Below are positions 51,323-51,541 of a DNA stretch of 53,851 nt, piece after piece (the first letter of the stretch is position 1; each line of letters begins with the position of its first letter). The notes below the pieces were generated by a model, which was given only the letters and a program-made list of their open reading frames with translations, made no database searches and had not been told where the DNA came from. A program made the translations under genes and the position numbers. The stretch comes from Candidatus Aminicenantes bacterium RBG_19FT_COMBO_65_30 (GTDB taxonomy: Bacteria > Acidobacteriota > Aminicenantia > Aminicenantales > Saccharicenantaceae). The stretch is from NCBI GenBank assembly GCA_001775755.1, contig MEYF01000018.1:892-54742 (forward strand). Reading direction: 5' to 3'.

Positions 51323-51541
51323 ATGAAAAAGCTGGCGATCTTAGCCCTGGCCGGGCTCGTCCTCGTTTCCGCGGCCCTTTTTTTCCCCATGGCCGCCGCC
51401 GGACACGATGTCAATGAATGCGACAGGGATCACCGGGATTGCCGGGAGAACGTCCTCAACATGGACGCCCCCTGGTACAAGGTCATGATCTTTCTGACGG
51501 TCTGCGACATCGGGCTCGGCAAGTGCATCCTCTTCATGTGA
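51323..51541 (+). CDS. Small secreted peptide, 72 aa, with twin Cx6C motifs
   Basis: AAGGAGA RBS; Sec signal MKKLAILALAGLVLVSAALFFPMAAA; C33-x6-C40-x20-C61-x6-C68; host-like codon usage. Confidence 0.85.
   Translation: MKKLAILALAGLVLVSAALFFPMAAAGHDVNECDRDHRDCRENVLNMDAPWYKVMIFLTVCDIGLGKCILFM

Follow-up and report, generated by a model that had tools for sequence, protein, structure and literature searches.

The window, by which we mean the whole stretch of 53,851 nucleotides analysed, carries near its right-hand end a short gene for a four-cysteine peptide with a promoter motif before it and an RNA hairpin after it. Genes for a beta-propeller, a thioredoxin-like protein, an ABC-2-type permease and the beginning of an ABC ATPase follow on the same strand (Table 1). 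The initial annotation had described the peptide, and in that it stands, but it had overlooked the cassette along with its sigma-54 promoter and propeller partner. The system at 51323-51541 is real and represents an undescribed variant among cassettes for exported disulfide peptides. No description of the peptide family was found in open-access full text, judged by title and the start of the abstract.

Table 1. Features of the peptide cassette and the basis on which each was assigned.
Feature	Position	Strand	Basis and remarks
Sigma-54 (-24/-12) promoter TGGCAC-N5-TTGC	51281..51295	+	Motif match; 27 nt before ATG
Shine-Dalgarno AAAGGAG	51309..51315	+	Sequence
72-aa precursor gene	51323..51541	+	Predicted Sec signal peptide (residues 1-26 or 1-27) and mature C-x6-C-x20-C-x6-C helical hairpin
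11-bp GC-rich RNA hairpin between peptide and propeller genes	51552..51577	+	z -2.98; no U-tail in window copy
Exported six-bladed NHL/DUF5128 beta-propeller	51607..52602	+	Pfam; start 51607 or 51613; D-L-G-P loop 52441-52452
Exported TlpA/AhpC-TSA-like thioredoxin with CPVC	52599..53069	+	Pfam/NCBIfam; CxxC
244-aa ABC-2-type permease, at least 5 hydrophobic segments	53042..53776	+	Pfam matches of relatives
ABC ATPase, first 22 codons, cut by contig end	53786..53851	+	Matches the N-terminus of the L001 ATPase; ABC_tran in relatives

The translation first given for the peptide gene is exact, and the twin C-x6-C arrangement is real, with cysteines at positions 33, 40, 61 and 68 of the precursor (spacing x6, x20, x6) and the annotated central proline at position 50. 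A search of 5.8 billion proteins returned 69 candidates, all 69 of them homologs, none of them named beyond hypothetical protein and two of them from Candidatus Aminicenantes; the 70 aligned sequences share all four Cys without exception. When 1.84 billion representatives were searched with a profile, 32 proteins matched, and the four Cys are likewise invariant in 33/33 diverse peptides down to 25% identity, with x6-x20-x6 kept (x21 in one). We also collected 55 loci from GTDB genomes, one lacking a start and two being fused or frameshifted, and compared the remaining 52 with the window copy. The Cys spacing, on whose conservation the initial annotation had staked its case, is kept in all 53 of these peptides, as are R41, L58, T59, D62 and K67, whereas Pro50 is kept in 35. 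In two loci the reading frame is disturbed, possibly by assembly errors: in L008 the frame runs on past the peptide stop, and L041 has a frameshift in the gene. The proposed comparison of substitution rates among homologs gave a median NG86 dN/dS of 0.50 for 909 pairs of 51 sequences (97% below 1) and of 0.27 for 183 close pairs; the peptide is under purifying selection.

The contrast first described between a charged, polar first half (GRAVY -1.55, net charge -4) and a very hydrophobic second half (GRAVY +1.49, net charge +1) is borne out and common to the whole family, with median GRAVY of -1.29 and +1.29. The first half had also been called rich in His, Asp and Arg; its polar character is family-wide but its His content is not conserved (H28 in 10/53 peptides, H37 in 39/53), which disfavours the His-based form of the metal binder that had been among the suggested functions. 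In the alignment the sequences begin with a hydrophobic signal of Sec type, at the end of which stands an A-x-A-like site. Cleavage between A26 and G27 suits the close homologs (Ala at 26 in 32/33, Ser or Ala at 24 in 31/33), while those in which residue 26 is Arg or Asp (VRA-H, ARA-R, ADA-R) favour cleavage between 27 and 28. The site is uncertain by one residue, which leaves 45 or 46 residues for the mature peptide; the 46-residue product first annotated is one of these two candidates.

The window peptide belongs to no Pfam or NCBIfam family, and comparison of 38 members with both collections yielded only scattered matches of E 0.0035 or weaker, each in one or two members. A PDB sequence search with the peptide profile gave nothing below E 0.07, and a feature-based search of the ESM Atlas returned solely unnamed Aminicenantota/Acidobacteriota clusters.

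The sigma-54 motif in front of the gene occurs once in the window, with 0.02 matches expected. In its strict form it stands 26-29 nt before the peptide ATG in 55/55 cases as compared with 6 of 19,576 random windows, and a ribosome site AAAGG[AG]G precedes the gene in 55/55 loci. The genome itself encodes RpoN and nine ORFs with an enhancer-binding-protein motif; no sigma-70 promoter was found for the peptide gene. Promoter, ribosome site, invariant Cys and dN/dS below 1 together reject the reading of 51323-51541 as a spurious or opposite-strand ORF. A stem of at least 9 bp follows the peptide stop in 41/53 loci but in only 244 of 5000 random windows, with a T-rich tail in 14, and the hairpin at 51552..51577 probably makes the peptide message more stable or lowers read-through; Rfam has no match at 51100-51700. 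In this genome, the strict sigma-54 sites number 12 (C3, C16, C48, C50, C54, C98, C99, C116 and C131 being among the contigs that carry them). Judged by eye, most of them precede signal-peptide-like or prepilin-like starts, including one prepilin-like gene, which suggests a sigma-54 regulon biased to the envelope.

The peptide gene heads a conserved operon of five genes. Within 4.5 kb downstream of it the propeller is found in 54/55, the thioredoxin in 52/53, the permease in 48/53 and the ATPase in 46/51 loci, counting only loci long enough and using profiles built from the same loci. Propeller and thioredoxin are encoded separately by genes that overlap, each protein has a signal peptide of its own, and the CxxC is present in 39/39 cassette thioredoxins. 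The window copy of the permease has no Pfam match, and among 33 permease members ABC2_membrane_4 was found in five and ABC2_membrane_2 in two. Conservation of the mature peptide (0.66) lies within the range of its cassette partners (0.63-0.70, 13 loci). A tree of the peptides left 21/35 inner branches unresolved and no conclusion is drawn from it. The cassette holds no outer-membrane secretion component, and its conserved genes include no sensor kinase or regulator. The ABC genes are absent beside the peptide in 5/53 loci, Saccharicenans-type and g14 loci among them, and no permease was found in genomes G611 or G174. In G610 the peptide gene stands alone, some 1.4 Mb from the thioredoxin and ABC genes, with no propeller seen in either of the two stretches examined; the cassette is broken directly after the start of the propeller gene (locus L018). 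The genome analysed here has 11 propeller-related ORFs, and no four-Cys peptide was seen upstream of the other ten; it also encodes a VKOR-DsbA fusion and a CcdA/DsbD membrane domain, and DsbB was not found in it (86% complete).

Upstream, the urocanase gene hutU (49432-51144) adjoins the cassette in 44/55 loci, and no other hut gene is among the commonest neighbour families. An HD-domain gene, a gene for a 429-residue coiled-coil-like protein and a GAF-GGDEF-PilZ gene (44791-49307) form a block upstream of hutU in 36-39 of the 55 loci; this block is possibly a c-di-GMP module.

Peptide matches were found in 80/251 genomes of the class. The gene is near-core and single-copy in the genus (24/24 other genomes), and occurs in 48/53 genomes of the family, in 14/15 and 4/4 genomes of sister families and in 8/60 and 0/18 of other families. 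Across the phylum 16/401 genomes match, 13 of them strongly and all 13 in the order Aminicenantales; the three marginal matches outside the order have E values of 1e-4 to 8e-4. The permease was found in 11 of the 401 genomes, all of them peptide-positive. No peptide paralogue was seen in the genome analysed here, and some others have tandem or orphan paralogues, which diverge fast and include orphans without a propeller. One set of orphans with aromatic C-terminal tails (L093-L096) stands head-to-head with a VKOR-DsbA fusion in 4/4 family-f2 loci, all from one genus.

Structure prediction agrees with the helical hairpin proposed initially. The AlphaFold2 model shows antiparallel helices at 30-45 and 51-69, with a pLDDT of 86 for the full length and 92 for the mature part. 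Foldseek with the full-length and mature models found no match at E 0.001 or better, and the top VIA-align rows were generic hairpins (best Z 7.1), with no glycocin among the best 50 matches listed. Among these the closest whole-chain fit is the Jug r 2 fragment 9q1l (0.6 A over 39/39 residues, Z 6.9), and luffin P1 (2l37) superposes at 1.6 A over 42 residues, both likenesses being of geometry only. Such alpha-hairpinin-type peptides and the twin-Cx9C proteins are also small antiparallel helical hairpins with nested disulfides, their Cys being spaced by three or nine residues in place of the six seen here. Identity to the plant hairpins is 12-13% and Z is below 8, so the geometry is convergent and not homologous. 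Membership of the twin-Cx9C (CHCH) family is rejected by the x6 spacing and by the lack of such a Pfam match in 38 members. The analogy with twin-Cx9C proteins drawn in the initial annotation thus keeps its helical hairpin, but a closer precedent is the bacterial glycocin scaffold.

That scaffold also bears on the disulfides. Both sublancin (C7-C36, C14-C29) and glycocin F (C5-C28, C12-C21) have C-x6-C twice, according to part of PMC5974097. In our family C40 and C61 are invariant in 38/38 peptides, while the paralogue L090:8559-8804 has lost C33 and C68 together. Because the model is antiparallel, C33 and C68 were lost jointly and the glycocins offer a precedent, the nested pairing C33-C68 and C40-C61 is likely. 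This is the pairing put forward at the outset, and the evidence for it, which includes the CxxC thioredoxin of the cassette, is all indirect.

The predicted helix-loop-helix also resembles that of glycocins, whose clusters likewise contain a thiol-disulfide oxidoreductase (PMC5974097, PMC10125368 and PMC12457901, each in part). There are differences as well. Glycocins are defined by glycosylation together with nested disulfides, as part of PMC10125368 puts it, and a C39 transporter cleaves off their leaders in the account given in part of PMC12457901, whereas this peptide has a Sec-type signal peptide without a double-Gly leader. Its inner Cys are 20 residues apart, compared with 14 in sublancin and 8 in GccF, and the invariant T59 sits in helix 2 of the model and not in the loop. 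The C39 peptidase family PF03412 was not found in the genome (86% complete), and the cassette ATPase, of about 235 residues, has no peptidase domain. No glycosyltransferase is seen among the four cassette genes, which are otherwise identified, or among 15 representatives scanned from the commoner neighbour clusters. Propeller, ABC-2 transporter and sigma-54 promoter further set the cassette apart, and the peptide comes from a diderm host in which it is near-core rather than sporadic. With no double-Gly leader, C39 transporter or glycosyltransferase found, the peptide is therefore not a glycocin; judged by its sequence, it is built like a glycocin core.

The same architecture could nevertheless serve a non-glycosylated, glycocin-like antimicrobial, folded by the thioredoxin and bound and expelled by propeller and ABC-2 module as self-immunity. 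LanI and LanFEG provide an analogy for immunity by binding and by expulsion from the membrane. The (C-x6-C)2 spacing shared with sublancin and glycocin F, whose clusters carry thiol-disulfide oxidoreductases (PMC5974097 and PMC12457901, in part), the exposed hydrophobic helix and the fast divergence of tandem and orphan paralogues fit such a role, and the predicted capture by the propeller described below would suit an immunity protein. We consider this reading unlikely on balance: the locus is fixed in 24/24 genomes of the genus and 48/53 of the family, with no strong match outside the order among 401 genomes; the mature part is not hypervariable; ABC genes are lost while the peptide stays; and the activity of sublancin requires its sugar, as stated in part of PMC10125368, while no glycosyltransferase is seen here. 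Net charge is zero or negative in 51/53 peptides, which also disfavours the cationic membrane-active antimicrobial of the initial annotation.

Complex prediction points to the propeller as partner of the peptide. An ESMFold2 complex of the propeller (alignment of 44 rows) and the mature peptide (51 rows) scored 0.90, the best of three controls 0.00; of 157 solved complexes 116 come up to this mark, and of 215 mismatched pairs 2 do so, counts that are approximate because our own alignments were used. At least 96% of contacts recur between runs, and the partner pLDDT is at least 85. In the model the peptide engages through its turn end (R41, E42, L45, N46, D48, P50-M55, L58 and T59), and the propeller surface includes K90-L91 and the near-invariant D254-L-G-P257 loop (numbering of alignment A3), so that invariant residues of both partners (R41, L58 and T59; D254 and P257) lie in the interface. 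Conservation of the propeller interface is modestly higher (0.66 vs 0.61, p 0.057; p 0.024 for a post-hoc subset), for sequences whose kinship makes them not independent. PDB sequence searches with the peptide and propeller profiles found no similar complex. The model thus predicts that the propeller binds the peptide hairpin turn-first. A second conserved peptide face (D62, G/A64, G66, K67 and L70) lies outside the predicted interface. A contact of the G66-K67 part with the ABC module is unsupported, as this part persists in Saccharicenans peptides whose loci have no ABC genes, and it is not simply an ABC contact.

Specific binding through a conserved turn, as predicted, is also what a secreted signal would show, be it a pheromone or a kin cue, with the propeller as periplasmic receptor and the ABC module relaying or clearing the signal. 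Sigma-54 control, the conserved upstream GAF-GGDEF-PilZ and HD-domain genes and divergent paralogues that could be signal variants are consistent with it. Yet the cassette is conserved without a sensor kinase or regulator of its own, hutU separates the c-di-GMP genes from it, these genes are absent at the Saccharicenans locus, and the peptide is large and half hydrophobic, all of which leaves the signal rather improbable.

The pairing of propeller and thioredoxin raises a further alternative. NHLRC2 and SOQ1 have a thioredoxin-NHL fusion (PMC6107167 and bioRxiv 10.1101/2024.11.01.621559, in part), and a conserved cleft of NHLRC2 has been proposed as a ligand site, according to part of PMC6107167. 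The four Cys might accordingly cycle between thiol and disulfide or bind copper, the peptide being a redox or copper shuttle and client of a split thioredoxin-NHL module. The propeller profile does match both NHLRC2 and SOQ1, and a CcdA/DsbD membrane domain is encoded in the same genome. However, the profile matches TRIM NHL domains far better, and the likeness to NHLRC2 and SOQ1 is for this reason generic. Only the N-terminal blades align, and the domains fused in one chain there are separate exported proteins in reverse order here, and a peptide dedicated to them is encoded alongside, as is an ABC transporter. With His residues not conserved, no spare Cys beyond the two pairs and orphans adjoining an oxidising VKOR-DsbA, a shuttle seems more doubtful than any of the other roles considered here.

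Our preferred interpretation, to which we give a probability of roughly 0.45, is that of an exported, oxidatively folded peptide that docks on its own propeller and serves the envelope of the producer. Several features favour it: the gene is near-core and syntenic, its product is not cationic, and it varies no more than the partner genes do. With a sigma-54 promoter in front and an RNA hairpin behind, the peptide gene would yield more message than the accessory genes. Signal peptidase would then free the peptide of 45-46 residues, and the hydrophobic second helix would hold it to the inner membrane from the outer side; stapled along the charged first helix, this second helix presumably could not span the membrane. 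The CPVC thioredoxin may form or proof-read the disulfides, with the VKOR-DsbA and CcdA proteins encoded in the genome as candidate electron sink and source. The propeller is predicted to capture the turn end of the hairpin, and the ABC-2 ATPase/permease, lost in some lineages, may power release of the peptide from the membrane. The second conserved face could meet a second partner or another copy, so that the peptide would act as an abundant envelope or surface subunit.

Taken further, own-envelope service could mean a fibre or coat of disulfide-stapled 45-residue hairpins stacking via the invariant D62-G66-K67 face, in which the propeller would be tip cap or chaperone, the ABC-2 ATPase would extract subunits and the paralogues would be minor or variant subunits. 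This elaboration, which also gives form to the surface polymer suggested initially, is speculative and on present evidence unlikely, although a fibre or coat of this kind would, if true, be new among the surface structures of bacteria. Type IV pili offer an analogy of layout only: PilY1 is a propeller and pilA is driven by sigma-54. Beside the type IV pilin genes of Myxococcus, PilGHI is an ABC-like module needed for a small membrane-bound subunit, and minor pilins are bound to the adhesin PilY1 (PMC3724824 and PMC6060248, in part). The cassette has no PilB, PilC or secretin, and a type IV pilin is rejected for the peptide, whose leader is of the Sec type and whose hydrophobic helix is C-terminal, and which shows neither a prepilin motif nor a pilin family match.

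The analysis defines an unnamed peptide family and its handling cassette, near-core in a widespread lineage of uncultured anaerobes. Its new elements are the complex predicted for peptide and propeller, the joint loss of two Cys and the connection to VKOR. A diderm bacterium is seen to have the (C-x6-C)2 spacing of glycocins without glycocin machinery, and the modelled complex suggests a role for at least some uncharacterised exported 'six-bladed beta-propeller' (DUF5128) proteins, namely the binding of a co-encoded small peptide.

The family also varies in its gene content. A second, divergent peptide gene stands in tandem between the first and the propeller in L050, L053-L055, L086, L087, L088 and L089. 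Genome G063 holds a second, divergent cassette (L103:1246-5422) with an x6-x17-x6 peptide and a sigma-54 motif, a propeller without the D-L-G-P loop, a CPSC thioredoxin and a fused permease-ATPase in opposite orientation, which suggests a wider family. The genes after two ABC-less cassettes (L086:1-6400 and L089:5600-11100) resemble what we take to be a type I restriction-modification set with a Fic-like gene, and an insertion of this kind has possibly replaced the transporter there.
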